Assembly: GCA_021848865.1 (NCBI GenBank)
Contig: JAJZTO010000001.1
Location: 1-28,785, forward strand
Direction: 5' to 3'
From: Myxococcales bacterium
GTDB taxonomy: Bacteria; Myxococcota; Myxococcia; Myxococcales; Anaeromyxobacteraceae
Length of the DNA stretch: 28,785 nt
A program made the translations under genes and the position numbers. The notes below the pieces were generated by a model that saw nothing but the letters and a program-made list of their open reading frames with translations, did not search any database and was not told where the DNA came from. Shown in pieces: positions 2-12,300 of this stretch. How positions within the stretch are numbered: position 1 is the first letter of the stretch; each line of letters opens with the position of its first letter.

Positions 2-616
2 GGGCGGATGACGGGAGAGCTGGAACGGGCGCGCGCCGCGGTGGAGCGTGCCCGGCGCGGCGCTCGCGTGGCCCTCGTCTCCTCGGGAGACGCCGGCATC
101 TACGGCATGGCGAGCCTCGCCCTCGAGGTCCTGCGCGAGGCCGGCTGGCGCCGCGGCACGCCGCCGGAGGTGACGGTGGTGCCCGGCGTGACGGCCCTCT
201 CGGCGGCCGCCTCCCTGGTCGGCGCGCCGCTCGGCCACGACTTCTGCGCCGTGTCCCTCTCCGACCTGCTCACGCCGTGGGAGGTGATCGCGCGCCGGCT
301 GGAGGCCGCGGCCATGGCCGACTTCGTCGTCGCCCTCTACAACCCGGCGAGCACGCGGCGGCGCCGACCGCTCGACGGCGCGCGCCAGATCCTGCTGCGG
401 CACCGCGCCGGCTCGACGCCGGTGGCGGTGGTCTCGGACGCCTATCGCGAGGGCGGGCGCCACGCGCTCACCGACCTCGACCACCTCCTCGACCAGGAGA
501 TCGGGATGACGACCACCCTCCTGGTCGGCTCGAGCCGGAGCTACGTCTTCGAGGGCCTGCTCGTCACCCCGCGCGGCTACGGTGACAAGTACGGCTGGAA
601 GGAGGACGCCCGGTGA
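2..616 (+). CDS. cobJ: Precorrin-3B C17-methyltransferase (CobJ/CbiH), 5'-truncated by window edge
   Basis: Motifs VALVSSGDAGIYGMA, VVPGVTA, APLGHDFCAVSLSDLLTPWEVI, VALYNP and VTPRGY. The frame is open back to base 2, and the ATG at 8 corresponds to the internal 'MT.E.ERA' motif, so the true start probably lies upstream. Stop TGA 614-616 overlaps the next GTG. Confidence 0.93.
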   Translation, partial: GRMTGELERARAAVERARRGARVALVSSGDAGIYGMASLALEVLREAGWRRGTPPEVTVVPGVTALSAAASLVGAPLGHDFCAVSLSDLLTPWEVIARRLEAAAMADFVVALYNPASTRRRRPLDGARQILLRHRAGSTPVAVVSDAYREGGRHALTDLDHLLDQEIGMTTTLLVGSSRSYVFEGLLVTPRGYGDKYGWKEDAR

Positions 617-1389
617 CGGTCCACTTCGTCGGAGCCGGCCCCGGTGCGCCGGACCTCCTCACGCTGCGCGCCGCGGATCTCATCGCTTCGGCGCCGGTCG
701 TCCTGTACGCCGGATCCCTGGTCCCGCCGGTGGTCGTCGCCCGCGCGCGCCCCGGCGCCGAGGTGCGCGACACGTCCGGCATGACGCTCGACGAGATCGT
801 CGAGCGCATGGCGGCGGCGCACCGAGCCCACCAGGACGTCGCCCGCGTCCACACCGGCGACCCGTGCCTGTTCGGCGCCATCGCGGAACAGATGCGCCGC
901 CTGGAAGCTCTGGGAATCCCCTACGACGTGGTCCCCGGCGTGTCCTCTTTCACCGCCGCGGCCGCCGCCCTGAAGCTGGAGCTCACCGTGCCCGGCGTCT
1001 CGCAAGCGGTGATCATCGCCCGCGCGCCGGGGCGCACCCCGGTACCCGACGGACAGCGGCTCGAGGAGTTGGCCCGCCACGGCGCGACACTGGCGCTGTT
1101 CCTGTCCGCCGGCTTGGTGGAGGAGGTGGTGGCGGCGCTCCTGCCGTCGTACGGCCCCGGCTGCCCGGTGGCGGTCGTGCACCGGGCGAGCTGGCCCGAC
1201 CAGCGGGTCTACCGCGGGACGCTCGCGAGCATCGCGGCCGAGCTCCGCCCGGCCGGCGTGGGGGCGACGGCGATGATCCTCGTCGGCCCCGCGCTGACCG
1301 CCCGGGACTTCCCCGACTCGCGCCTGTACGCGGCCGGCTTCGCCCACGGCTGCCGCCCGGCCCGCCTGCGCCCCGAGGAGTCGCCGTGA
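613..1389 (+). CDS. cobM: Precorrin-4 C11-methyltransferase (CobM/CbiF)
   Basis: HFVGAGPGAPDLLTLRA, VLYAGSLV, VARVHTGDPCLFGAIAEQM, VVPGVSSF, VVHRASWPDQ and SRLY..GF.H motifs; GTGA coupling at both ends. Confidence 0.95.
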   Translation: MTVHFVGAGPGAPDLLTLRAADLIASAPVVLYAGSLVPPVVVARARPGAEVRDTSGMTLDEIVERMAAAHRAHQDVARVHTGDPCLFGAIAEQMRRLEALGIPYDVVPGVSSFTAAAAALKLELTVPGVSQAVIIARAPGRTPVPDGQRLEELARHGATLALFLSAGLVEEVVAALLPSYGPGCPVAVVHRASWPDQRVYRGTLASIAAELRPAGVGATAMILVGPALTARDFPDSRLYAAGFAHGCRPARLRPEESP

Positions 1390-2744
1390 GCGCCGGCCGC
1401 CTCCGGATCGCCGTGACCGGCTCGGCCGGCGTGGGCAAGACCACGCTGGTCGAGGCGCTCGCGCCCGCGCTCGGGCTCTCGATCATCCCGGAGGAGACGC
1501 GGGCGCACTTCGAGCACGGCGGGCGCCTGCTCTCCGCCACGCCGCCGGGCGAGGTCGCCCCGGCCGTGGAGCGGCTCTGGGAGGACCGGCGGCGGACCGA
1601 GGCGCGGCTCACCTCGTTCGTCGCGGACAACTGCAGCCTCGACTTCCCGGCCTATGCCCTCCACCACGGGGCCACCGACGAGGTCCGGGTGGCCCGGCTC
1701 CTGGAGGAGGCCCAGGCGTCGTGCGCCGGATACGATGCCATCCTCCTCCTGCCCTGGAGTGCCATCCCGTACCGGCGCGACGGCGTCCGCGCCGACGCGC
1801 CGCTGGCGGAGCTCCGGTACCAGCTGGTCCTGGAGTCCCTCCTCGCCCGCCACGCCGACCCGCTCCGTGTCCACCGGCTTCCCGCCACCTGCTCCTCCCG
1901 GGAGGCCCGGCTCGCCTGGGCGTTCGAGCGGGTCACCGCGGCGCGCGCTCGACGCGCCGGCGCGCCGGACCGCCTCGGAGCGGGTCCCGAGCGGCGCGGA
2001 TTCGTGCACCTCGTCGGCGCCGGCCCGGGCGACCCCGGGCTGCTCACGCTGCGGGCGCTCGATCTCCTTCGCACCGCCGAGGTGGTAGCCCACGACGAGC
2101 TCGTCCCCGCCCCGGTCCTGGCCCTCGCCGGACCGCGAGCGGAGCTCATCCCGGTGGGACGCCGCCACCACGGCTCGTCGCGCCACCCGCTTCGGCTCCA
2201 TCCGGCGGTGCTGGAGCGAGCCGCCGCGGGCAAGGTGGTGGTGCGCCTCAAGTGCGGGGACCCGCTGGTCTTCGGGCGAGGCGGCGAGGAGGCCGAGGAG
2301 CTGACCGAGGCGGGCATCCCCTGGGACGTCGTCCCCGGCATCTCCGCGGCGCTCGGCGCGGCCGCGAGCGCCCACATCCCGCTCACGCACCGCGAGCTGA
2401 GCTCGGACGTCACCTTCGCCACGGGCCACGATCTCGGCTGCGGCCGCGCGAGCCGGAGCGACTGGCCCAAGCTGGCCGGGGGCGGCACGCTCGTGCTGTA
2501 CATGGCCTCGCGCGCGCTGGGGCCGAACCTGGCGCGGCTCGTCTCGCTGGGGCGATCCGCCTCGACCCCCGCGGCGTGGATTGCCAACGCCACCCGGCCC
2601 GACGAGCAGGTGGTCACCGGCACCCTGGGCGATCTCGCCGCGAAGGTGGCGGGCGCACCGGGCGACGGCCCGGCCCTGCTCGTGGTGGGCGAGGTGGTCT
2701 CGGTCCGCGAGAAGCTCGCCGCAGCCTCCCGAGGTCGGCCGTGA
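1386..2744 (+). CDS. cobA: Fusion protein: N-terminal NadR/AAA_28-type P-loop ATPase/kinase-like domain (~1404-1934) plus C-terminal uroporphyrinogen-III C-methyltransferase (CobA/SUMT, ~1995-2744), 452 aa
   Basis: GTG at 1386 overlaps the cobM stop. N-terminal part: IAVTGSAGVGKTT (Walker A), PEETR, FVADNCSLD, YDAILLLPW..IPY..DGVR. C-terminal part: VHLVGAGPGDPGLLTLRA, VVRLKCGDPLVFGRGGEE, VVPGISAA, PLTHR, TLVLYM. One continuous frame with no stop between the domains. Confidence 0.88.
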   Translation: MSAGRLRIAVTGSAGVGKTTLVEALAPALGLSIIPEETRAHFEHGGRLLSATPPGEVAPAVERLWEDRRRTEARLTSFVADNCSLDFPAYALHHGATDEVRVARLLEEAQASCAGYDAILLLPWSAIPYRRDGVRADAPLAELRYQLVLESLLARHADPLRVHRLPATCSSREARLAWAFERVTAARARRAGAPDRLGAGPERRGFVHLVGAGPGDPGLLTLRALDLLRTAEVVAHDELVPAPVLALAGPRAELIPVGRRHHGSSRHPLRLHPAVLERAAAGKVVVRLKCGDPLVFGRGGEEAEELTEAGIPWDVVPGISAALGAAASAHIPLTHRELSSDVTFATGHDLGCGRASRSDWPKLAGGGTLVLYMASRALGPNLARLVSLGRSASTPAAWIANATRPDEQVVTGTLGDLAAKVAGAPGDGPALLVVGEVVSVREKLAAASRGRP

Positions 2745-3265
2745 GCGCGCCGGAAGGGCTCCTGATCGTCTACACCGGCGACGGCAAGGGGAAGACGACC
2801 GCCGCGCTCGGGCTCGCCTTCCGCGCCCTCGGGCACGGGCTTCCGGTCGCCTGCGTCCAGTTCATCAAGGGGCGCTGGAAGACCGGGGAGCGGCTCTTCG
2901 CGGCCCATTTCTCCCGGCTCACGTTCCTGTGCATGGGCGAGGGCTTCACCTGGGAGGGCGGCGGACCGGAGGTGCACGCGGCCGCCGCCCGGGCCGCCTG
3001 GAGCCGCGCCCGAGCGCTCCTCGCCGCCGGCGAGCACCGGCTGGTGATCCTCGACGAGCTCACGCACGTGATCCGCCACGGGTTCGTGCCGGAGGCGGAG
3101 GTGCTCTCGGCGCTCGCCAGCAGGCCGCCGGGGATCACGGCCGTCGTGACCGGGCGCGGTGCACCGCCCGCGCTTCTCGCCGCCGCCGACCTCGCCACCG
3201 AGATGCGCGCCCTCCGCCATCCCTTCGAGCACGGGGCCGGCGCCGTGCGGGGGATCGACTTCTGA
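2741..3265 (+). CDS. cobO: Cob(I)yrinic acid a,c-diamide adenosyltransferase (CobO/BtuR)
   Basis: VYTGDGKGKTTAALG, VQFIKG, MGEGFTW, LVILDEL, VVTGR, ADLATEM...HPF and C-terminal GIDF; GTG at 2741 overlaps the upstream TGA. Confidence 0.95.
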   Translation: MSAPEGLLIVYTGDGKGKTTAALGLAFRALGHGLPVACVQFIKGRWKTGERLFAAHFSRLTFLCMGEGFTWEGGGPEVHAAAARAAWSRARALLAAGEHRLVILDELTHVIRHGFVPEAEVLSALASRPPGITAVVTGRGAPPALLAAADLATEMRALRHPFEHGAGAVRGIDF

Positions 3266-3267
3266 CC

Positions 3268-4641
3268 ATGGCCAGGGTCCTCTCCATCCCCCGGCTCGTC
3301 GTCGCCGCCGCGTCGAGCGGATCCGGCAAGACCACGGTCGCGGTGGCGCTCGCCCGCGCCCTGCGCGCGCGCGGACTGTGCGTGGCGCCGTTCAAGTGCG
3401 GGCCCGACTACCTCGATCCCACCTACCACGCCCGCGCCGCGGGCCGGCCCTCGCACAACCTGGACGGCTGGATGATGGGACGCGAAGCCTGCCTCGCCAC
3501 GTTCGCGCGCGCCAGCGCCGGCGCCGACGTGGCGCTGGTCGAGGGCGTCATGGGGATGTACGACGGGGCGTCCCCCGTCTCCGAGGAAGGCTCCACGGCC
3601 GAGCTGGCGAAGTGGCTCGACGCTCCGGTGGTGGCCGTCCTCGACGCCTCGGGGATGGCGCGGACCGTCGCCGCGGTGGCGCAGGGGCTCGCAGGCTTCG
3701 ACCCGGCGGTGCGCCTCGGCGGCGTGATCTGCAACCGGGTCGGGGGCGCGCGCCACCTCGCCCTGCTTCGCGAGGCGCTCGGCGCGCCGCCGGTGCTGGG
3801 CGGCTTCTTGGATCGGCCGGACCTCGCCTTCCCGGAGCGCCACCTCGGGCTGCGCACGGCGGACCCAGGCTCGGCGCCGGAGGCCCGGTTCGCCGCCTGG
3901 GGAGCGGCGGCGGAAGACGGGCTCGACGTCGATGCCCTGCTGGCCCTGGCGCGGGGCGCGCCGCCGCTCGACGCGCCCGGTGCGCCGAGCAGGTCTATCC
4001 CGCCGCGCTGCCGGATCGGGATCGCCTTCGACGAGGCGTTCCATTTCTACTACGAGGACAACCTGGCGCGGCTCGAGGCGCTGGGCGCCCGCCTGGTCCG
4101 GTTCTCGCCGCTCCACGACGCGGCGCTCCCGGAGGTGGACGGACTCTATCTCGGCGGCGGCTACCCGGAGGAGCACGCCGCCACCCTCTCCGCCAACCTG
4201 GACATGCACCGGGCGCTCCGTGCCTTCGCTGCGAGCGGACGGCCCGTGTACGCCGAGTGCGGCGGCCTGATGGCCCTCTGCGAGGCGATCCGCACCCGCC
4301 AGGGCGCCATCTTCCCGATGGCGGGCCTGCTCCCCGGGACGGCGGTCATGCAGGACCGGCTGGCCGCGCTCGGCTACGTCGAGGTCGAGACCCGCGCCGC
4401 GACGCCGCTCGGCCCCGCCGGACTGCGGCTCCGCGGGCATCAGTTCCGCTACTCGGAGCTGCGTGACGTCCCCGACGACGTCCCGCGCGCCTACGCGCTC
4501 CAGGGCCGCCGCGGCAGCCCGCCCGCGCTCGAAGGCTACGCTCGCGGCGGCGTGCTCGGCTCGTACGTCCACGTCCACTTCGCCTCCTGCGCGGGCGCCG
4601 CGGCGGGGTTCGTGGAGAGCTGCGTCCGGAGGCGCGGGTGA
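3268..4641 (+). CDS. cobB: Cobyrinate a,c-diamide synthase (CobB/CbiA)
   Basis: SGSGKTTV, FKCGPDYLDP, HNLDGW, EGVMGMYDG, GVICNRV, AFDEAFHFYY, YLGGGYPE, YAECGGLM and SYVHVHF; ATG 2 nt after the cobO stop. Confidence 0.95.
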   Translation: MARVLSIPRLVVAAASSGSGKTTVAVALARALRARGLCVAPFKCGPDYLDPTYHARAAGRPSHNLDGWMMGREACLATFARASAGADVALVEGVMGMYDGASPVSEEGSTAELAKWLDAPVVAVLDASGMARTVAAVAQGLAGFDPAVRLGGVICNRVGGARHLALLREALGAPPVLGGFLDRPDLAFPERHLGLRTADPGSAPEARFAAWGAAAEDGLDVDALLALARGAPPLDAPGAPSRSIPPRCRIGIAFDEAFHFYYEDNLARLEALGARLVRFSPLHDAALPEVDGLYLGGGYPEEHAATLSANLDMHRALRAFAASGRPVYAECGGLMALCEAIRTRQGAIFPMAGLLPGTAVMQDRLAALGYVEVETRAATPLGPAGLRLRGHQFRYSELRDVPDDVPRAYALQGRRGSPPALEGYARGGVLGSYVHVHFASCAGAAAGFVESCVRRRG

Positions 4642-5345
4642 CGCGGCGGCACCTCCCGCCCGTCGAGTTGCGAGAGCGGCAGCTGGTCGTCCGGCTCGGC
4701 GGACCGCATGCCGTCCTCTCCTGGGCGCTCGTGAACGGGGGCCGGCAGGACGCGAGCGAGGTCGTCTGGGCCGAGGTGCGCGACGGCGAGCTGCGTCCAC
4801 CCGTCGATGCGGCGGCGCTCCTGCGGGCGCGGCTCGCGGAGGCGGGCCTTCCCGAGGCGGTCGGCCTCCTCACGAGCCGCGCGCTCTCGCGCTACGTCTC
4901 GGTCGAGCGGCAGGCAGGTGACGCGATCGCGCGGTGCGTCGCGACGGTCGGCCTGGGCAACCTGCTCCGCGCCGGCGACCCGGTGAGTCGTTCCCGGGTC
5001 GGGACGATCAACCTCGTCTGCCAGCTCTCCTTCGCGCTCTCCGAGCTGGCGCTGGTCGAGGCGCTGTCGATCGCGACCGAGGCCCGCAGCGCCGCCGTGC
5101 TCGAGGCGGGGCTGCCCAGTGCCGCCAGCGGCGCCCCGGCGACGGGCACCGGCACCGACTGCATCGTCGTCGCCGCTCCGGCCGCCGCTGGCGGCGCGCC
5201 GTACGCCGGCAAGCACACCCTCGCCGGTCACCTGATCGGCGCCACCGTCCTGGAGGCGGTCCGCCGTGGAGTGGCGGGCTGGCTCCTGGAACACCCCGCA
5301 GCGTTCACCCGTACCCGGAACACCAGACCACGAGCCTGGCCATGA
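4638..5345 (+). CDS. cbiZ: Adenosylcobinamide amidohydrolase (CbiZ)
   Basis: LSWALVNGG, VGLLTS, ATVGLGN, GTIN, LVEALSIATEAR, ATGTGTDCIVV and YAGKHT..G..IG are CbiZ-family motifs; GTGA and ATGA coupling to cobB and cobT. Confidence 0.88.
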   Translation: MTRRHLPPVELRERQLVVRLGGPHAVLSWALVNGGRQDASEVVWAEVRDGELRPPVDAAALLRARLAEAGLPEAVGLLTSRALSRYVSVERQAGDAIARCVATVGLGNLLRAGDPVSRSRVGTINLVCQLSFALSELALVEALSIATEARSAAVLEAGLPSAASGAPATGTGTDCIVVAAPAAAGGAPYAGKHTLAGHLIGATVLEAVRRGVAGWLLEHPAAFTRTRNTRPRAWP

Positions 5346-6397
5346 CCCTCCTCGAGAAGACCCTCGCCGCCATCCCCGAGCCCGACCTTGCCGCCGCACG
5401 CGAGGCCCAGGCGCGCCTCGACCAGAAGACCAAGCCGCCCCGCAGCCTGGGCAAGCTCGAGGACCTGGCCTGCGCGCTCGCCGCGATCCGCGGCACCGCC
5501 GACCTCGAGCTCCCCCGCAAGGCCGTCGTGGTGATGGCCGGCGACCACGGCGTGGCCGAGGAGGGGGTCAGCGCCTTCCCCCAGGAGGTCACGGCGCAGA
5601 TGGTGCTCAACTTCGCGGCGGGCGGGGCGGGCATCAACGTCATCGCCCGTCAGGCCGGGGCCGAGGTGCTCGTCGTCGACATGGGAGTGAAGTCCCCGCT
5701 GCCGGAGAGCCCGGCCATCCGCTCGGTCCGGGTGGCGCCCGGGACGGCCAACCTGGCCCGCGGTCCGGCGATGACGCGCATCCAGGCCACCGCGGCCCTC
5801 GAGGCCGGGATCGCCATCGCGAACGAACTCGCCGACCGCGGCAGGACGCTCCTCGCCATCGGCGAAATGGGGATCGCGAACACCACGCCGGCGAGCGCCC
5901 TCACCGCCGCCTTCACCGGACGCCCCCCGGCGGAGGTCACCGGCCGCGGCACCGGCATCGACGACCAGGCCCACCGGCGCAAGGTCGAGGTGATCGCCCG
6001 CGCGCTGCGCGTGAACCGGCCGGATCCGGCCGATCCCCTCGGCGTGCTGGCCGCGCTCGGCGGGCTGGAGATCGCCGGGCTGGCGGGCGTGGTGCTGGGC
6101 GCCGCGGCCCGGCGCGTGCCGGTGCTGACGGACGGCTTCATCGCCACCTCTGCCGCCCTCTGCGCGGTCCGCCTCGCGCCGCGCGCCGGCTTCGCCGTCC
6201 TCGCCTCTCACCGGTCGGTGGAGGCCGGTCACCGGCACCTCCTCGCCGCCCTCGGGAAGGAGCCGCTCTTCGACCTCGATCTCCGTCTCGGCGAGGGAAC
6301 CGGCGCGGCGCTCGCGATGCACCTCGTCGAGGCCTCGGTGCGCGTCCTGCGCGAGATGGCCACCTTCGCCTCGGCCGGCGTCAGCGGCAAGGACTAG
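5342..6397 (+). CDS. cobT: Nicotinate-nucleotide--dimethylbenzimidazole phosphoribosyltransferase (CobT)
   Basis: KTKPPRSLGKLE, AGDHGV..EGVSAFPQEVT, GEMGIANTT, GRGTG, LGGLEI, DGFI, SHRSVE.GH and LRLGEGTGA; ATG 5342 overlaps the cbiZ stop. Confidence 0.96.
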   Translation: MTLLEKTLAAIPEPDLAAAREAQARLDQKTKPPRSLGKLEDLACALAAIRGTADLELPRKAVVVMAGDHGVAEEGVSAFPQEVTAQMVLNFAAGGAGINVIARQAGAEVLVVDMGVKSPLPESPAIRSVRVAPGTANLARGPAMTRIQATAALEAGIAIANELADRGRTLLAIGEMGIANTTPASALTAAFTGRPPAEVTGRGTGIDDQAHRRKVEVIARALRVNRPDPADPLGVLAALGGLEIAGLAGVVLGAAARRVPVLTDGFIATSAALCAVRLAPRAGFAVLASHRSVEAGHRHLLAALGKEPLFDLDLRLGEGTGAALAMHLVEASVRVLREMATFASAGVSGKD

Positions 6398-6403
6398 GGC
6401 GAC

Positions 6404-7333
6404 GTGGCCCGGCTCGCCGCCACCGTCGCGCTCGCCTTCGCGATCGATCTCGCGCTGGGAGAGTTCCCGGCCCCGCTCCACCCGGTGGTCTGGATGGGCC
6501 GCCTCCTCTCGCTGCTGGAGCGGGCGGCCCCGGCCGCCGGCCGCACCCGCCAGCTGGCCTGGGGCGCGCTGGTGGCGGTGTGCGTACCGGGGCTGTTCGC
6601 GGCGGCCGCGCTGGCGCTCGCCTCCGCGACCCGCCGGCTGGGCTGGGCCGGCGTGCCGCTCGACGCGCTGGCGCTCAAGTCGACGTTCGCGCTCCGCGCG
6701 CTCGGCGAGGCCGGCCGGTGCGTCCGCGACGCGCTGCGGGCGGGAGACCTCGGACGGGCGCGCGACGGGCTGCGCTCGCTCTGCAGCCGCGACCCGTCGC
6801 GGCTCGGTCCACGAGAGCTCGCCGCGGGTGCCGTCGAGTCGCTGGCCGAGAACGCGTCCGACAGCGTCGTCGCACCGCTGTTCTGGTTCGCGCTCCTCGG
6901 CCTCCCCGGCGCCTTCGCCTGCCGGGCGGTCAACACGCTCGACGCGCGCATCGGGTATCACGGCTCGTTCGAGTGGCTGGGCAAGCCGGCGGCCCGGCTC
7001 GACGACCTGTGGAACCTCGTCCCGGCGCGCCTCACCGCGGTCCTGCTCCTCGCCGCCGGCCTCCTCCTCCGGGCCGACGCGCGTGGCGGCGTCCGTGTGC
7101 TCCTGCGGGACGGTGGCGCCACCGAAAGCCCCAACGCCGGCCGTCCCATGGCCGCCATGGCCGGCCTCCTCGGAGTGGCGCTCGAGAAGCCTGGCCACTA
7201 CCAGCTGGGCCGCGAGGGGAGCCCGCCGAGCGCCGAGAGCATCGGGGCCGCCTGGCGCATCGTCCGCGTCGCCGCGCTCCTGGCCGCCGTCCTGTCGATC
7301 GTCCTCCCGGGAGGCCTGCGTGGCGGGCTCTAG
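6404..7333 (+). CDS. cbiB: Adenosylcobinamide-phosphate synthase (CbiB; CobD in the aerobic nomenclature), membrane protein
   Basis: DLALGE...[57 protein letters not shown] and [20 protein letters not shown]; hydrophobic helices. Confidence 0.94.
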
Positions 7334-8393
7334 CCGGAGGGCGCCGGCCTTCCGCCACCACGGCGGCGCGCTCGCGGCCGAGCTGGAGGCGCTCGCCCTC
7401 GGGCCGGACGACGTGCTCGACTTCAGCGTCAACGTGAATCCGTACGGGCCCTGTCCGGAGGTGCTGGCGGCGGTCCGGAGCGCACCGGTGCACCGCTACC
7501 CCGACCCGAGCGCGCTGGCGGTGCGGCGCGGCGTGTCCGCCGCCACGGGCGCGCACCCGGACGAGGTGGTGTTCGGCGCCGGCGCGGCCGACCTGCTCTG
7601 GACGGTCTGCCGCGCGCTCTTCGCCGGCGGAGGCACCGCGCTGGCGGTCGAGCCTTCGTTCTCGGAGTTCGGCGCCGCCGCCGATGCCGCGGGAGCGCGG
7701 CTCGTCCGGTGGACCGCGCGCGCCGAGGACGCCTTCGCGCCCGACCTCGACGGGGTCGCGGCGGCGGCGCGGCGCGAGCAGGCGGACGCCGTCTACCTCT
7801 GCGCCCCCACCACGCCCGTCGGAGCGCCCGTCCCCCTCGCCGCGGTGCGCACGCTCGCGCAGCGGCTCCCCGCCACGATCGTGATCCTGGACGAGTCCTT
7901 CCTCTCCCTCTCGGACGGGGCGGAGGAGTCGGCGCTCTCGCTTCCCGCGAACGTCGTCCGGCTGCGGTCCATGACGAAGGAGCACGCCATCCCCGGGCTG
8001 CGCGCGGGGTACCTGCTCGCCCCCGCCCCGCTCGCCCGGGCCGTCGAGGTTTCGCGGCCGGCCTGGAGCACCAGCAGCGTCGCGCAGGCCGCCGCGCTGG
8101 CGGCCCTGGGCGCGAGCGCGTTCGTCAGCGCGTCGCGCGAGCGGCTCCGCGCGGACCGGGAGGCGACCGCCACCAGCCTCCGCGCCCTCGGGCTCGCCCC
8201 CCTCTTCTCGGTCGCGCCCTACCTTGTGTTCCGCGCCGACGACGCCGCCGCCCTGCTCTTCGGCGTGCTCCCCCGCTCCGATCTGGTCCGCGACTGCGCT
8301 TCCTTCGGCCTCGCCGGCTTCGTCCGCGTGGCCGCGCGCCCCACCGCCGAGCGGGAGCAGCTCGTGGACGCGCTCGCGAAGGAGCTGGGATGA
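7320..8393 (+). CDS. cobD: PLP-dependent threonine-phosphate decarboxylase-like (CobD/CobC-type class I/II aminotransferase fold)
   Basis: HGG...[36 protein letters not shown] (PLP lysine) and LVRDCASFG; GTG at 7320 with GGGAGG at 7309-7314; position between cbiB and cobQ. Confidence 0.85.
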
Positions 8394-9973
8394 CCGCCCG
8401 CACCGTGATGGTCCAGGGGACCGCCTCGTCCGTCGGCAAGAGCCTCGTCACCACCGCGCTCTGCCGGCTCTTCCGCCGCGCCGGCCTCCGCGTCGCGCCC
8501 TTCAAGGCGCAGAACATGGCGCTCAACTCGGCCGTCTCGGCGGACGGTGGCGAGATCGGGCGCGCCCAGGCGGTGCAGGCCGAGGCCGCCGGCGTGGCCC
8601 CGACCGTCGACATGAACCCGATCCTCCTCAAGCCGGAGGGCGACGCCAGATCGCAGGTGGTGGTGCTGGGCAAGCCCATCGCCTCGATGGGTGCGGCCGA
8701 GTACCACGCCCGGAAGCCGGAGCTGCGCACGGTGGTGGCGGGAGCGCTCGCGCGGCTGCGTGCGGCGCACGACGTCGTCGTGATCGAGGGCGCCGGCAGC
8801 CCGGCCGAGGTGAACCTCAAGGACCGCGACATCGTCAACATGGACGTCGCCCGCGCCGCGGACGCCCCGGTGCTGCTGGTGGGCGACATCGACCGCGGCG
8901 GCGTCTTCGCCGCCTTCGTGGGTACGCTCGAGCTGCTCGATCCGCCGGAGCGGGCGCGCGTCGCCGCGTTCGTGGTGAACAAGTTCCGCGGCGACGTGGG
9001 GCTCCTGCAGCCCGGGCTCGACTTCCTCACCGGGCGCACCGGCGTCCCGGTGCTGGGGGTCCTCCCGTTCGTTCGCGGGCTGCGGATCGCGGACGAGGAC
9101 TCGGTCTCGCTCGACGACCGCCGGAGCCACCGCCTCCCCAGCGACGGGGAGCTCGGGATCGCGGTGATCCGGTTGCCACGCATCGCCAACCACGACGACC
9201 TCGAGCCGCTCGAGCACGAGGCCGGGGTGGCGGTGCGCTGGGTGGAGGATCCGCGCGGCCTCACCGATGCGGACCTGGTCGTGCTGCCGGGCTCGAAGTG
9301 CACCGCCGACGACCTCGCCTGGCTGCGGGCGACCGGGCTCGCGGCCGCGCTGGCACGCCGGGCTGCCCGGGGAGACCCGGTGCTCGGGATCTGCGGCGGC
9401 TGCCAGATGCTGGGGGAGTCGATCCACGACCCACTCGGCGTCGAGTCCCCGTTGGGCGTATTGGAGGGGCTCGGCCTGCTGCCGCTGCGGACCCACTTCG
9501 CGCAGGAGAAGGTGACCGCGCGCGCCCGGGCCCGCATCGCGACCAGCTCCTTCCTCGGCGATGCCGGCCCGGTCCGCTTCGACGGCTACGAGATCCACAT
9601 GGGCGCGGTCGAGCCTCTCGCTGGCGCTCGCCCCGCGTTCGAGGTGCTCGAGCGGAACGGCGCGGCCGCCGCGGTGGCGGACGGGGCCGTCTCGGACGAT
9701 GGGACGGTCGTCGGGACGCTGCTTCACGGGTTGCTGGAGAACGACGGGGTCCGCGCCGCACTGCTCCGCAACCTGCGGCACCGGCGCGGTCTCTCGGCCG
9801 AGCCCGGCCGGCGCATCGCCGCCCGTGAGGAGGAGTACGACCGGCTGGCGGACCACGTCCTCGCGCACCTGAACTGGGAGCTCCTCTGCCGGATCGCCGG
9901 CCTGGAGACTCCGCGTCCCGCCCCCGTCGCCACGCACCTCACCCACCCGAGCCGCCGGACGCCGGCGGCGTGA
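8390..9973 (+). CDS. cobQ: Cobyric acid synthase (CobQ/CbiP)
   Basis: MVQGTASSVGKS, PFKAQNMALNS, GEIGRAQ, MNPILLKP, EGAGSPAEVNL, DIDRGGVFA, NKFRGD, LPGSK, GICGG.QMLG, GYEIHMG and HG..EN; ATGA coupling to the upstream gene. Confidence 0.96.
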   Translation: MTARTVMVQGTASSVGKSLVTTALCRLFRRAGLRVAPFKAQNMALNSAVSADGGEIGRAQAVQAEAAGVAPTVDMNPILLKPEGDARSQVVVLGKPIASMGAAEYHARKPELRTVVAGALARLRAAHDVVVIEGAGSPAEVNLKDRDIVNMDVARAADAPVLLVGDIDRGGVFAAFVGTLELLDPPERARVAAFVVNKFRGDVGLLQPGLDFLTGRTGVPVLGVLPFVRGLRIADEDSVSLDDRRSHRLPSDGELGIAVIRLPRIANHDDLEPLEHEAGVAVRWVEDPRGLTDADLVVLPGSKCTADDLAWLRATGLAAALARRAARGDPVLGICGGCQMLGESIHDPLGVESPLGVLEGLGLLPLRTHFAQEKVTARARARIATSSFLGDAGPVRFDGYEIHMGAVEPLAGARPAFEVLERNGAAAAVADGAVSDDGTVVGTLLHGLLENDGVRAALLRNLRHRRGLSAEPGRRIAAREEEYDRLADHVLAHLNWELLCRIAGLETPRPAPVATHLTHPSRRTPAA

Positions 9974-10266
9974 TGGCACGCATGCATGCCGCCTTCCACA
10001 CGGAGAACGCGGAGGCCACGGAGCTGTATTCCGGGGAGCTGGGCGCCACCCGCCGCCACCCCAAGCTGGATGGGAGCCTCGGGTCACCGGTCGAGATCTG
10101 CCTCACCTGCGACCGGGACCGTGCTGGCCCGGTGGTGGCTGGGCGCACGCTCATCCGGACCACGGACCTCATGAGCTCGGTGCCCGCCGTCTCGAACCTT
10201 GACGCTCAACCCGCGGCGGCCGCCAGCAGGAATCCCAGCTCGGCGAGCTCGATACAGGCGCCGTAG
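9973..10266 (+). CDS. Small hypothetical ORF (97 aa), doubtful
   Basis: ATG overlaps the cobQ stop (TGATG). Third codon positions are mostly G/C over the first ~70 codons. No recognisable family; the 3' end overlaps cobS on the opposite strand by 61 nt. Confidence 0.3.
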   Translation: MARMHAAFHTENAEATELYSGELGATRRHPKLDGSLGSPVEICLTCDRDRAGPVVAGRTLIRTTDLMSSVPAVSNLDAQPAAAASRNPSSASSIQAP

Positions 10267-10943
10267 ACGTCTCCCGTGAGTCCGCCGAGGCGGCGGTGCA
10301 CGGCGAGCGCCGCCGCCCCGGCCGCGAGGAGCGCACCGATGACGGGCAGCACGGCGTGGCCGCGCATGCCGGCGGCCGCTGCGGCGGCGAAGGCACCCGC
10401 GGCGGCCACGTGCCAGCCTCGCCCTCCTCCGTGGAACGGCTTGCCGAGCCCCTCCGGGCGCGCGTACGGGAGCCAGACGACGAGGGGCACCACGGCGAAG
10501 CGTGCCACCGCCGGGAACGCGAGGAGCGCAAAGAGGTCGCCGCGGCCGAGCACCGTCACCAGCGCGGCGGCCTTGAGCATCAACACCAGGACCAGCGCCG
10601 CGGCGCCGTGCGCACCGATCCGGCTGTCCCTCATGATGGCGAGGGTGCGGGCACGATCCCCCGCGCCCCCGGAGAAGCCGTCGAACACGTCCGCGAGCCC
10701 GTCGAGGTGGAGACCTCCCGTCAGGAACGCGTGCACCGCGACCAGGAGCACCCCCCCGAGAAGCGGTGGCAGCGGCCCGGCGATCGCCGCCGCGAGCGCC
10801 GCCAGCGCTGCGCCGAGCAGCGCACCGGCGACCGGGAAGAACGGGAGGGAGCGCCCGAGATCCTCGCCGGTCACGTCCCCGACGCGCGCTGGGAACCGCG
10901 TGAGGAACTGCACGGCGACAGCGAGGGGCCGGGCGACGCTCAT
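10206..10943 (-). CDS. cobS: Adenosylcobinamide-GDP ribazoletransferase, cobamide synthase (CobS)
   Basis: QFLTRFP, FFPVAGALLG, TGGLHLDGLADVFDG, IMRDSRIGAHG and GGLTGDVYGA..E..E; ATG at 10943 overlaps the cobU stop (ATGA). Confidence 0.96.
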   Translation of the reverse strand: MSVARPLAVAVQFLTRFPARVGDVTGEDLGRSLPFFPVAGALLGAALAALAAAIAGPLPPLLGGVLLVAVHAFLTGGLHLDGLADVFDGFSGGAGDRARTLAIMRDSRIGAHGAAALVLVLMLKAAALVTVLGRGDLFALLAFPAVARFAVVPLVVWLPYARPEGLGKPFHGGGRGWHVAAAGAFAAAAAAGMRGHAVLPVIGALLAAGAAALAVHRRLGGLTGDVYGACIELAELGFLLAAAAG

Positions 10944-11500
10944 CCGCCCACCGCCGGGGTGAGCGCCGCCACCGGACCCGGCGACAGCCGCAGCACGACG
11001 CCCATGACCACGAAATGGACCTCGTCGGCGAGAACGGCGATCCGCTGGTGTCCCCGGCCCGCCAGATCGCGGAAGCGGCGCCCGAGCGCCGTCTCCGGGT
11101 GGACGCCCATTCCGACCTCGTTCGTGACCAGCACCACGTGACAGGGAGGGGCCGCGAGGACGCGGCACAGATCCTCCAGCCGCGCGTCGACCGCCGCGTC
11201 GTCCGCCCCGTCCACGAGGAGGTTCGAGACCCACAGCGTCAGGCAGTCGATCAGGGCGACGTCCGCCGAGTCGAGGGCCGCGAGGCGGCCGGGCAGATCC
11301 ACCGGCTCCTCGACCGTGGCGAAGTCCGCGCCACGCTCCTCGACGTGCCGGTCGATGCGGGCCGAGAGGTCGGCGTCGTACCGGCGCGCCGTGGCGATGA
11401 AGGTGCGCCGGGCGCCGAGCGAGCGTGCCAGGGCGAGCGCATGGGCGCTCTTGCCCGATCGCGCCCCTCCCCCGACGAGGATCACCTTCCGGTGCGACAT
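10940..11500 (-). CDS. cobU: Bifunctional adenosylcobinamide kinase / adenosylcobinamide-phosphate guanylyltransferase (CobU/CobP)
   Basis: GGARSGKS, FIATA, RI.RH..ER, EEP, DCLTLWVSN and VTNEVGMG.HP...LGRRFRD..G; TGATG coupling with the upstream gene at 11500. Confidence 0.95.
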   Translation of the reverse strand: MSHRKVILVGGGARSGKSAHALALARSLGARRTFIATARRYDADLSARIDRHVEERGADFATVEEPVDLPGRLAALDSADVALIDCLTLWVSNLLVDGADDAAVDARLEDLCRVLAAPPCHVVLVTNEVGMGVHPETALGRRFRDLAGRGHQRIAVLADEVHFVVMGVVLRLSPGPVAALTPAVGG

Positions 11501-12300
11501 CAACTCTCCGCCAGGAGTTCCTCGAGGACCGCCAGCGACTCCGCGAGATCGGCCTCGCCGAACACCTCCAGGGTGAGGACGCCTTGGTAGCTCACGGCGC
11601 GGAGCATGTCGAGGAGCTCCCGCAGGATGGCCGCCGGGACGTGACGCAGCGACCGGTGGTCGCGTCCGCCCGGCTCCACGCCATGGACCTGGACGACCCG
11701 CGCGCGGCACAGGTGGCGTTCCAGGAGCGGGCGCACCGGCCGTCCGTCGCGCAACAGGTGGCCCACGTCGAGCGCGGTCGAGAGCCCCAGCGCTTCCACG
11801 ACCGGCGCGATCGCCTCGAACTCGTAGTCCAGCGATTCCACGGACAGCACCTGGGGCGCGACGCCCCACTCGACGATCTCGGAGAGGGATCGCGCGGCAC
11901 GGCGACGGAACGCGGCGAGGTCGCGAGGGAGCGGATCGCCTTCCCGGTCCCCCGCGTAGACGTGGACCACGATGGCGCCAGGCACGACGCGCTGCGTCCT
12001 CTCGACCGCTCGCAGGACTCGCCGGACGCCGTCTCGCCGTCTCTCCTCGTCCTCGCTCGCGAGGCTCGCCTCCAGCGGCGTGTGCAGCGAGTAGGTGAGC
12101 CCGGTCCGGGCACGCAGGTCGGCGAGACCTGCGACCTCCTCGATCGAAGGAAGCGCGGCGGGGTCGCCGTCGAAGCAGAGCAGCTCCACGTCCTCGACCC
12201 GGGTCGCGAGCCTGGCGGCGTTCTCGAGCCAGCCGGCGCGATGGATGAAGGACGTCGTCCCCAGACGGCAGTGCAGGCCATGACGGGCGGCGGGCGCCAT
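11500..12300 (-). CDS. cbiR: Cobamide-remodelling phosphodiesterase CbiR-like (xylose-isomerase/AP-endonuclease-2 TIM barrel)
   Basis: RLGTTSFI, VEDVELL.F, TYSLHTPL, VVH, VESLD, LDVGH, VQVHG, DHRSL and LTLEVF match the metal-binding E/H/D residues of this barrel family. Translationally coupled to cobU-cobS. Start chosen at ATG 12300; no clear SD. Confidence 0.78.
   Translation of the reverse strand: MAPAARHGLHCRLGTTSFIHRAGWLENAARLATRVEDVELLCFDGDPAALPSIEEVAGLADLRARTGLTYSLHTPLEASLASEDEERRRDGVRRVLRAVERTQRVVPGAIVVHVYAGDREGDPLPRDLAAFRRRAARSLSEIVEWGVAPQVLSVESLDYEFEAIAPVVEALGLSTALDVGHLLRDGRPVRPLLERHLCRARVVQVHGVEPGGRDHRSLRHVPAAILRELLDMLRAVSYQGVLTLEVFGEADLAESLAVLEELLAES

Follow-up and report, generated by a model that had tools for sequence, protein, structure and literature searches.

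A P-loop kinase domain of NadR type fused to uroporphyrinogen-III methyltransferase in cobamide operons of Myxococcota

The fused gene and its operon

The stretch of DNA analysed here, in full the window, comprises 28,785 nucleotides (positions 1 to 28,785, forward strand) of contig JAJZTO010000001.1 from a Myxococcales bacterium of the Anaeromyxobacteraceae (assembly GCA_021848865.1). It has a GC content of 74% and belongs to an 81%-complete metagenome-assembled genome (MAG), with the nearest homologues coming from Anaeromyxobacter. The gene map was drawn from a frame plot of third-position GC together with Pfam scans, and start codons were checked. Within a cobamide operon of the window lies a gene for 452 amino acid residues in which a P-loop kinase-like domain precedes a uroporphyrinogen-III C-methyltransferase (SUMT) domain (Table 1). 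A reading made from the nucleotide letters alone, hereafter the original prediction, had described one stop-free frame coupled to cobM and cobO by GTGA overlaps, and this is what we find at 1386-2744 of the forward strand. The GTG start at 1386 shares its GTGA with the cobM stop (1386-1389), and the stop of the fused gene shares another with the GTG start of cobO at 2741 (2741-2744).

Pfam scans, as the original prediction had proposed, place AAA_28 (PF13521) in the N-terminal part (residues 7-157, profile positions 1-150 of 164, 52.5 bits, E = 8.5e-14, gathering threshold 27) and TP_methylase in the C-terminal part (residues 207-418, 167 bits). The P-loop domain of about 180 residues contains both motifs quoted for it, namely GSAGVGKTT and the lid-containing stretch YDAILLLPWSAIPYRRDGVR at residues 116-135. 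The linker of about 20 residues is indeed rich in Arg, Ala, Pro and Gly; residues 193-202 have a predicted local distance difference test (pLDDT) value below 50 in a full-length AlphaFold2 (AF2) model, and both the length and the sequence of the linker differ among homologues. The SUMT domain is complete, with 241.7 bits against NCBIfam TIGR01469 (cut-off 185; residues 205-441, model positions 1-237 of 238) and 243.9 bits in the genome scan, and it is the only SUMT above the cut-off in the window's genome, which is 81% complete. No GHMP, CobU (PF02283) or CTP_transf_like domain was found in the fused protein by the Pfam scan.

Table 1. Coordinates of the fused gene, its parts and its neighbours in the window
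Feature	Position	Strand	Basis or remark
Whole fused gene, 452 aa (AAA_28 kinase domain, linker, SUMT)	1386-2744	+	Single stop-free frame
NadR-RNK-like P-loop kinase domain, aa 1-185, clade I	1386-1940	+	Pfam, AF2 fold, profile, tree
Walker A GSAGVGKTT, aa 12-20	1419-1445	+	Conserved columns; aligned to NadR Walker A
EETR motif (E36, E37, R39)	1491-1502	+	Aligned to NadR EEYAREY; E36 and R39 invariant, E37 clade I-specific
Walker B region FVADNCSLD (D81, D86)	1617-1643	+	N82 in clade I, Arg in clade II
Lid region LLPWSAIPYRRDGVR	1746-1790	+	D132, G133 and R135 invariant; Y129 clade I-specific
Arg/Ala/Pro/Gly-rich interdomain linker ARARRAGAPDRLGAGPERRG, about aa 186-205	1941-1997	+	Predicted disordered
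Uroporphyrinogen-III C-methyltransferase (SUMT/CobA) domain, aa 205-447	1998-2726	+	TIGR01469
cobM/cbiF-like precorrin methyltransferase, upstream neighbour	613-1389	+	Pfam/NCBIfam; GTGA overlap
cobO, ATP:corrinoid adenosyltransferase, downstream neighbour	2741-3265	+	Pfam CobA_CobO_BtuR, 196 bits; GTGA overlap
cbiA	3268-4641	+	Pfam
cbiZ	4638-5345	+	Pfam
cobT	5342-6397	+	Pfam
cbiB	6404-7333	+	Pfam
cobD, L-threonine phosphate decarboxylase type (aminotransferase)	7320-8393	+	Pfam
cobQ	8390-9973	+	Pfam; rest of operon spans 3268-9973
cobS	10206-10943	-	Pfam; convergent trio
cobU	10940-11500	-	Pfam; convergent trio
CbiR-like AP_endonuc_2 gene	11500-12189 or -12300	-	Pfam; convergent trio

Ahead of cobM, on the same strand, lies a TP_methylase gene that is cut at its 5' end. 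In the window's 81%-complete genome, no CobC (TIGR03162) reached the cut-off, a 35-bit partial match on contig C163 scoring highest; in the Anaeromyxobacter relatives, cobC closes the operon behind cobS.

The fusion is genuine and conserved

A word-indexed protein search showed that the identical 452-residue product is on record, along with full-length homologues that carry the two Pfam domains, with identities of 81%, 78%, 62% and lower, their sources being Anaeromyxobacter, Vitiosangium and metagenomes. When one genome per species was scanned at the DNA level with 12 closer sequences, 62 loci emerged, and at all 18 related loci that carry both domains the two stand in one unbroken frame. Among the sources of these loci are two complete genomes, of Archangium minus Cbm 6 and Cystobacter fuscus Cbf 10, as well as the isolates Anaeromyxobacter soli, Pyxidicoccus fallax, Myxococcus sp. 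and Vitiosangium. The kinase-SUMT fusion is therefore genuine and conserved; a lost stop codon or an assembly artefact, for which the original prediction had looked to two separate genes in close relatives, is ruled out by these loci.

Public annotation calls the fused proteins simply uroporphyrinogen-III C-methyltransferase. The original prediction held the fusion to be apparently undescribed, and in the literature searched we found no description of a kinase-SUMT fusion or of a cobamide-associated kinase family; a systematic survey of metabolic gene fusions includes SUMT-HemD and CysG-type fusions, not kinase-SUMT.

Family, fold and conserved residues of the kinase domain

An exhaustive HMMER search over 1.84 billion cluster representatives retrieved 284 proteins at E ≤ 1e-3, 71 of them at E ≤ 1e-10, which are partly standalone (about 180-210 residues) and partly fusions. 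In an alignment of 36 domains, G12, G17, E36, R39, D86, D132, G133, and R135 are invariant, while K18 and D81 are nearly so. The profile of this alignment matches the ribosylnicotinamide kinase (RNK) domain of Lactococcus lactis NadR (6GYE) at E = 8e-11, and H. influenzae NadR as well, and the Walker A motif, the EExxR stretch, the Asp pair of Walker B, and the DGxR of the lid coincide with those of NadR RNK. The positions of these motifs in L. lactis NadR, including the lid, have been reported (PMC7221760). The AF2 model of the kinase domain built from the alignment has a pLDDT of 92.7; its top structural matches are NadR RNK domains, with template modelling (TM) scores of 0.70-0.73, followed by thymidylate and deoxynucleoside kinases, and deoxyadenosine kinases are also among the fold matches. 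All the marks of a NadR-type RNK, i.e., GxxxxGK[ST], a Walker B Asp, a DGxR lid, and a thymidylate-kinase-like fold, are present, and Pfam, profile and fold matches agree on the NadR/AAA_28-type domain named in the original prediction. Because the fold and every invariant residue agree with NadR RNK, the N-terminal domain is probably a catalytically competent small-molecule kinase of the NadR-RNK/nucleoside-kinase type; its sequence and model display all the features of active kinases that act on a ribosyl 5'-hydroxyl or on nucleoside monophosphates.

Given that the nearest characterised homologues and structures are nicotinamide riboside kinases that share all the catalytic motifs, and that one homologue record of the Joint Genome Institute (JGI) is labelled 'uroporphyrinogen-III synthase/nicotinamide riboside kinase', the domain might phosphorylate nicotinamide or nicotinate riboside like NadR RNK, giving nicotinamide or nicotinate mononucleotide (NMN or NaMN) as the phosphoribosyl donor of CobT. 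We regard this as unlikely. The fused protein has no NMNAT domain, and the contexts examined show no NAD-related neighbours, with NAD-salvage genes (pnuC, NMNAT) found in none of them. Furthermore, NaMN is a standing intermediate of the NAD pathway and the flux to B12 is tiny, so that a dedicated supply seems unnecessary.

In the full-length AF2 model, the individual domains are confident, but the whole-protein predicted TM score (pTM) is 0.47 and the linker is disordered. A fixed kinase-SUMT interface is not indicated by this model, which suggests two independently folded domains. The absence of fixed packing counts against a regulatory or auxiliary role, in which the domain would be a nucleotide sensor controlling SUMT, or an adenosine kinase that pulls the breakdown of S-adenosylhomocysteine and so relieves product inhibition of the methyltransferases. 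Such a role would suit a fusion to a branch-point enzyme that is the only SUMT found in the genome, and the deoxyadenosine kinases among the fold matches would suit it too, but the catalytic residues are all conserved and the same domain also occurs standalone or fused to HemD, CobO, or CobC. We consider it very unlikely.

Three observations were made on more distant or irregular AAA_28 proteins. Judged by language-model features, the near neighbours include many AAA_28 clusters of viral (Uroviricota) origin. In P0137 and others from Bacillota, AAA_28 is N-terminal to CTP_transf_like (NMNAT-type), which is the NadR domain order reversed. P0055, of 412 residues, combines an N-terminal half of PEPCK_ATP with an AAA_28 domain of the cobamide-associated subfamily and probably stems from a chimeric contig or an error of gene calling.

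Two clades, their fusion partners and their gene contexts

A maximum-likelihood tree of the subfamily and other AAA_28 proteins separates the subfamily well from the latter, which is a further point against a nicotinamide riboside kinase, and divides it into a pair of sister clades. The window's domain falls in clade I (support 99/95), as do all fusions with SUMT, HemD, and CobO, together with a small number of standalone proteins. The CobC fusions form clade II (support 95/92) with the remaining standalone proteins, among them those of Rhodospirillales. The clades are told apart by three conserved positions close to the catalytic motifs (E37/G, N82/R, and Y129/L), so that the motif after strand 2 reads EE[MT]R in clade I and E[GA]MR in clade II, the Walker B region FVADN and FVADR, and the lid PY..DGVR and PL..DGVR, respectively. 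The two clades occur together in none of the genomes tested, and this mutual exclusion is consistent with one shared function.

According to Pfam scans, the fusion partners are SUMT, HemD, SUMT-HemD, SUMT-CobO (downstream in the same polypeptide in P0033, P0006, and P0017), and a His_Phos_1 domain located N-terminal to the kinase. For the His_Phos_1 partners, the best NCBIfam model by a wide margin is TIGR03162 (α-ribazole phosphatase CobC) with 139-154 bits, just below its cut-off of 162.9, and we therefore call them CobC-like.

Clade I genes always lie within cob clusters, which are of the de novo type and contain cobD and cbiB. The order in Myxococcota is cobM, kinase-SUMT, cobO, cbiA, cbiZ, cobU, (cobT), cbiB, cobD, cobQ, (cobT), cobS, (cobC), and that in Acidobacteriota is cobM, kinase-SUMT(-HemD), cbiA. 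Standalone clade I genes stand behind cobM (L021), behind cobO (L113), or behind cbiA and convergent with cobD-cbiB (L114), and another is divergent from cbiZ-cobD-cbiB. In the case of clade II, one locus reads cobC-like, kinase, a gene of 192 residues, a cobalamin riboswitch, and btuD-F-C, and a standalone gene of Rhodospirillales is divergent from a btu operon controlled by a cobalamin riboswitch. Three further CobC-kinase contexts are non-specific, including L028, where a btu identity was considered for the ABC genes upstream of the fusion and rejected, these being of the ABC-2 exporter type.

Since members of the family, which is spread over Myxococcota, Acidobacteriota, Planctomycetota, and Rhodospirillales, are fused to SUMT, HemD, CobO, or CobC-like domains, lie in cob clusters, and have btuF and riboswitch-btu neighbours, the subfamily is very probably a genuine cobamide-dedicated kinase domain. 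The original prediction had suggested searching the architecture across genomes, and homologues, both fused and standalone, do recur in cob clusters. Thus, a known kinase fold would have been recruited to cobamide metabolism, with a substrate that is proposed from fold and gene context.

The neighbourhood of clade II also raises the question of a corrinoid kinase, for example a further cobinamide kinase, or an enzyme that phosphorylates a cobamide, whole or partly degraded, after its uptake by BtuFCD. Being co-operonic with btuF and next to riboswitch-controlled btu operons, and occurring in genomes of cobinamide salvagers (CobU+ CobS+ CbiB-), the family has some of the traits expected of one, but the model predicts a compact domain of the nucleoside-kinase fold with about 185 residues. 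A corrinoid substrate is very unlikely, and the relationship to CobU described below also speaks against it.

Several loci deserve a separate record. At L082:9006-11389 and L083:1857-4312, a clade II CobC-kinase fusion overlaps a btuF-like gene for a periplasmic binding protein by 4 bp and is divergent from FecCD and ABC_tran genes, an arrangement that reads as a compact uptake-plus-loop-finishing module. The gene of 192 residues mentioned above (L065:8552-9130, forward strand) overlaps the 3' end of the standalone clade II kinase gene and looks conserved; it has no Pfam or NCBIfam match and may be a further B12-salvage gene. Seven loci (L025, L029, L035, L037, L052, L053, and L057, ~10001-10540), in MAGs labelled Enterobacterales, Pseudomonadota, or Myxococcota, carry clade II-like kinase genes with FVADR[AS].YD that are flanked on one side by a PP2C-type phosphatase region and on the other by a DUF1015 gene, with no cob genes near.

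An in-frame deletion in a close relative

The operon of the window recurs, with proteins 84-90% identical, in a genome of the same family (G080, 99% complete), but there the kinase domain has been lost by an in-frame deletion. The SUMT of G080 begins MSAARRLLAWTLERF..., in which the kinase domain is reduced to its first ~6 codons and its last helix, with everything between them lost. The deletion allele is located at L125:15413-16273 on contig C25, and its remainder is 88% identical to residues 198-445 of the window protein. Because G080 keeps the same operon with the kinase domain deleted, the domain is accessory and is dispensable in a close relative, a property that would also suit a regulatory role. 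The G080 operon has no cbiZ between cbiA and cobT and retains cobD and cbiB, and no PduX-like kinase was found in this genome.

These features bear on another possible substrate, L-threonine or (R)-1-amino-2-propanol, whose phosphorylation would feed CobD and CbiB and is the only step of the loop and arm branches without an assigned gene in the myxobacterial operons. A kinase non-orthologous to PduX and BluE, which are of GHMP type, could fill it, and the standalone clade I genes that are divergent from cbiZ-cobD-cbiB or convergent with cobD-cbiB fit this idea. No PduX/BluE-type GHMP kinase was found in the carriers examined: the sole GHMP kinase of A. soli, Aerophototrophica, and Niveispirillum is IspE, and the GHMP set of Archangium consists of two galactokinases, three adjacent GHMP-kinase genes, which probably belong to the mevalonate pathway, and one weak match. 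The weak match, in Archangium minus, is a 378-residue open reading frame (L081, G001:C1:6634593-6637787) with 26 bits for GHMP_kinases_N and no NCBIfam family, ~310 kb from the cob cluster. The missing kinase is a recognised gap, most verified cobamide producers lacking pduX (PMC6461909), and for that very reason the absence of a GHMP kinase in the carriers is not specific.

In the window's own class, the kinase is present in only three of the five CbiB+ genomes, and CbiZ tracks it in all five, with a co-loss in G080; this agreement would favour L-threonine kinase, but the tie is not general, as CbiZ is present in just 3 of 10 additional clade I genomes, and a CbiZ-linked role was rejected as a general rule. 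A complementary distribution of the domain and PduX-like kinases proved uninformative, because the kinase-less CbiB+ genomes G080 and G095 also lack a PduX-like GHMP kinase. G080 keeps cobD and cbiB with neither kinase; L-threonine phosphate in this family therefore probably comes from another source, which the window's genome probably shares. In addition, the invariant residues are all those of ribosyl 5'-hydroxyl kinases, and the CobC fusions would be left unexplained. We thus hold an L-threonine or aminopropanol kinase to be rather unlikely.

A link to the CbiR-like gene was likewise rejected, since this gene is present in the kinase-less G080 and was not found in the kinase-bearing G107 and G118. 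The CbiR-like-cobU-cobS trio is kept as a unit at a separate locus of G080 (C20:75484-77493), with 76% identity for the CbiR-like protein.

Co-occurrence of clade II with the nucleotide-loop enzymes

Presence and absence were profiled in 61 genomes from the order to which one of the CobC-kinase carriers belongs; they are mutually related and some are incomplete MAGs. The 27 kinases found are all of clade II. The kinase and CobS occur together in 23 genomes, the kinase alone in 4, CobS alone in 4, and neither in 30; the corresponding numbers for CobU are 22, 5, 2, and 32. The kinase thus accompanies CobU rather than substituting for it, and no carrier with CobS and CobT but without CobU was found in the sample, both of which argue against a second cobinamide kinase. 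In 17 of the 27 carriers, the kinase is fused to CobC or adjoins it.

CbiB, the sole known consumer of aminopropanol phosphate, is present in only 8 of the 27 carriers, and 15 carriers have CobS without CbiB, which is difficult to reconcile with an L-threonine kinase in this clade. The occurrence of clade II in CbiB- salvagers without the corrin-ring methyltransferase pathway is equally a point against a regulator of SUMT. CobT is encoded in 19 of the 27 carriers, as would be expected if the kinase supplied its phosphoribosyl donor, but the kinase is retained in all four CobS+ CobT- genomes, just as it is present in 19 of the 23 CobS+ CobT+ genomes. Cobinamide salvagers without CobT (CobU+ CobS+ CbiB- CobT-) are among the carriers.

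α-Ribazole as the candidate substrate

Taken together, the nucleoside-kinase fold and residues, the tie to CobC, the co-occurrence with CobS and CobU, the CobT-less salvagers, and the accessory status lead us to favour, tentatively and at somewhat less than an even chance, an α-ribazole (lower-ligand riboside) kinase that is functionally like CblS. The fused gene would encode a bifunctional protein, a single chain bearing two enzymes that fold independently of each other. Of these, the C-terminal one is the cell's SUMT, converting uroporphyrinogen III to precorrin-2, while the N-terminal kinase would phosphorylate the 5'-hydroxyl of a ribosyl compound in the nucleotide-loop branch. The likeliest substrate would be α-ribazole or another lower-ligand α-riboside, giving α-ribazole 5'-phosphate for CobS by a salvage or bypass route alongside CobT. 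The junction to SUMT would then represent a fusion of operon neighbours and not a device for substrate channelling.

Several observations weigh against an α-ribazole kinase. The co-occurrence evidence comes from clade II, while the window's domain belongs to clade I and differs at E37/G, N82/R, and Y129/L, so that the substrates of the two clades could differ; the profiled genomes are also related to each other, so that Fisher values for the counts overstate their independence. The window and other clade I clusters encode CobT, and an α-ribazole kinase is hence not needed there for de novo synthesis. The partners of clade I are the first enzymes of the ring branch and not loop enzymes, and two standalone clade I genes adjoin cobD-cbiB. 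A kinase-CobC fusion could produce a futile cycle if the CobC domain dephosphorylates α-ribazole phosphate. No CobS, CobU, or CobT was found in 4 of the 27 carriers and in two MAGs elsewhere, which may reflect MAG incompleteness or a CobS-independent role, and a CblT-like α-ribazole transporter was not identified. The proposal of a substrate draws on fold and gene context.

The difference between the clades could be accommodated by two cobamide kinases, with clade II a non-orthologous α-ribazole kinase by which CobT-less salvagers build the nucleotide loop, clade I the long-missing non-GHMP kinase of the aminopropanol arm (L-threonine or aminopropanol kinase) of Myxococcota, Acidobacteriota, and Planctomycetota, and the positions E37/G, N82/R, and Y129/L setting the specificity. 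We think this division unlikely.

The original prediction had proposed that the domain supplies a step without a gene in the window. A cobamide-tied kinase agrees with this, but CobT, the maker of α-ribazole phosphate, is encoded in the window, and the presence of CobT points to a kinase for salvage or bypass rather than for a missing core step. With regard to the three candidates offered, phosphorylation of α-ribazole for CobS fits best (fold, CobC fusions, CobS/CobU, and all four CobS+ CobT- genomes), although the co-occurrence data come from clade II. An L-threonine kinase feeding CobD is disfavoured by the 15 CobS+ CbiB- carriers of clade II and by the G080 deletion, a case that is weaker for clade I near cobD-cbiB. 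For the supply of NaMN or NMN, no specific support emerged.

Significance and comparison with known systems

The cobamide pathway is well mapped, but its kinase steps are patchy, PduX and BluE being missing from most producers (PMC6461909). The family described here is a compact kinase of about 185 residues tied to B12 by fusions, operons, riboswitch neighbourhood, and co-occurrence, and the phyla concerned abound in soils and sediments. Should it prove to be an α-ribazole kinase, predictions of riboside salvagers and of CobT-less cobamide makers need revision, α-ribazole gains weight as a shared metabolite in microbial communities, and a second, unrelated enzyme becomes available for pathway engineering. 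If it is a threonine or aminopropanol kinase, a long-standing gap in the pathway is closed. In both cases, the short list of candidate substrates is within reach of standard assays and existing Salmonella mutants.

The NadR RNK domain (PF13521; PDB 1LW7, 6GYE, and 8X7F) resembles the window's domain in fold (TM 0.70-0.73), Walker A, the EExxR after strand 2, the Asp pair of Walker B, and DGxR. However, the identity is only ~17-19%, the window's domain belongs to a separate clade and has no NMNAT or helix-turn-helix domain, the base-binding region is not conserved, and the contexts and fusions of its family are related to cobamides and not to NAD.

CblS is not known to be a P-loop AAA_28 protein. 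The proposed reaction, α-ribazole plus ATP to α-ribazole 5'-phosphate, and the bypass of CobT are those of CblS from Listeria and Geobacillus, whose partner is the transporter CblT, and in both cases the kinase is present in CobS+ genomes without CobT (PMC6461909 for CblS). CblS is mostly confined to Firmicutes (PMC6461909), whereas the window's family is represented in Myxococcota, Acidobacteriota, Planctomycetota, and Rhodospirillales. Its carriers showed no partner resembling CblT, and most of them have CobT.

PduX, BluE, and DabA are GHMP kinases with GHMP_kinases_N/C domains and motifs I-IV (PMC10906522). Like the window's domain, they are cobamide-pathway kinases in or near cob clusters, filling a step without a gene in the window, but their fold is unrelated, and a sister clade in CbiB-less genomes does not fit an L-threonine function. 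Compared with the cobinamide kinase CobU/CobP, the fused protein is without PF02283, and a separate cobU lies on the reverse strand.

CysG (dehydrogenase/chelatase-SUMT) and CobA-HemD share with the fused protein a canonical C-terminal SUMT, and some relatives have SUMT-HemD behind the kinase; in the window, however, the partner of SUMT is a P-loop kinase and not an enzyme of an adjacent tetrapyrrole step. Finally, 6-phosphofructo-2-kinase/fructose-2,6-bisphosphatase carries a P-loop kinase and a His_Phos_1 phosphatase on one chain. By analogy, it resembles the CobC fusions of clade II and not the SUMT fusion of the window, with the domain order of the clade II fusions reversed and their kinase belonging to another subfamily.

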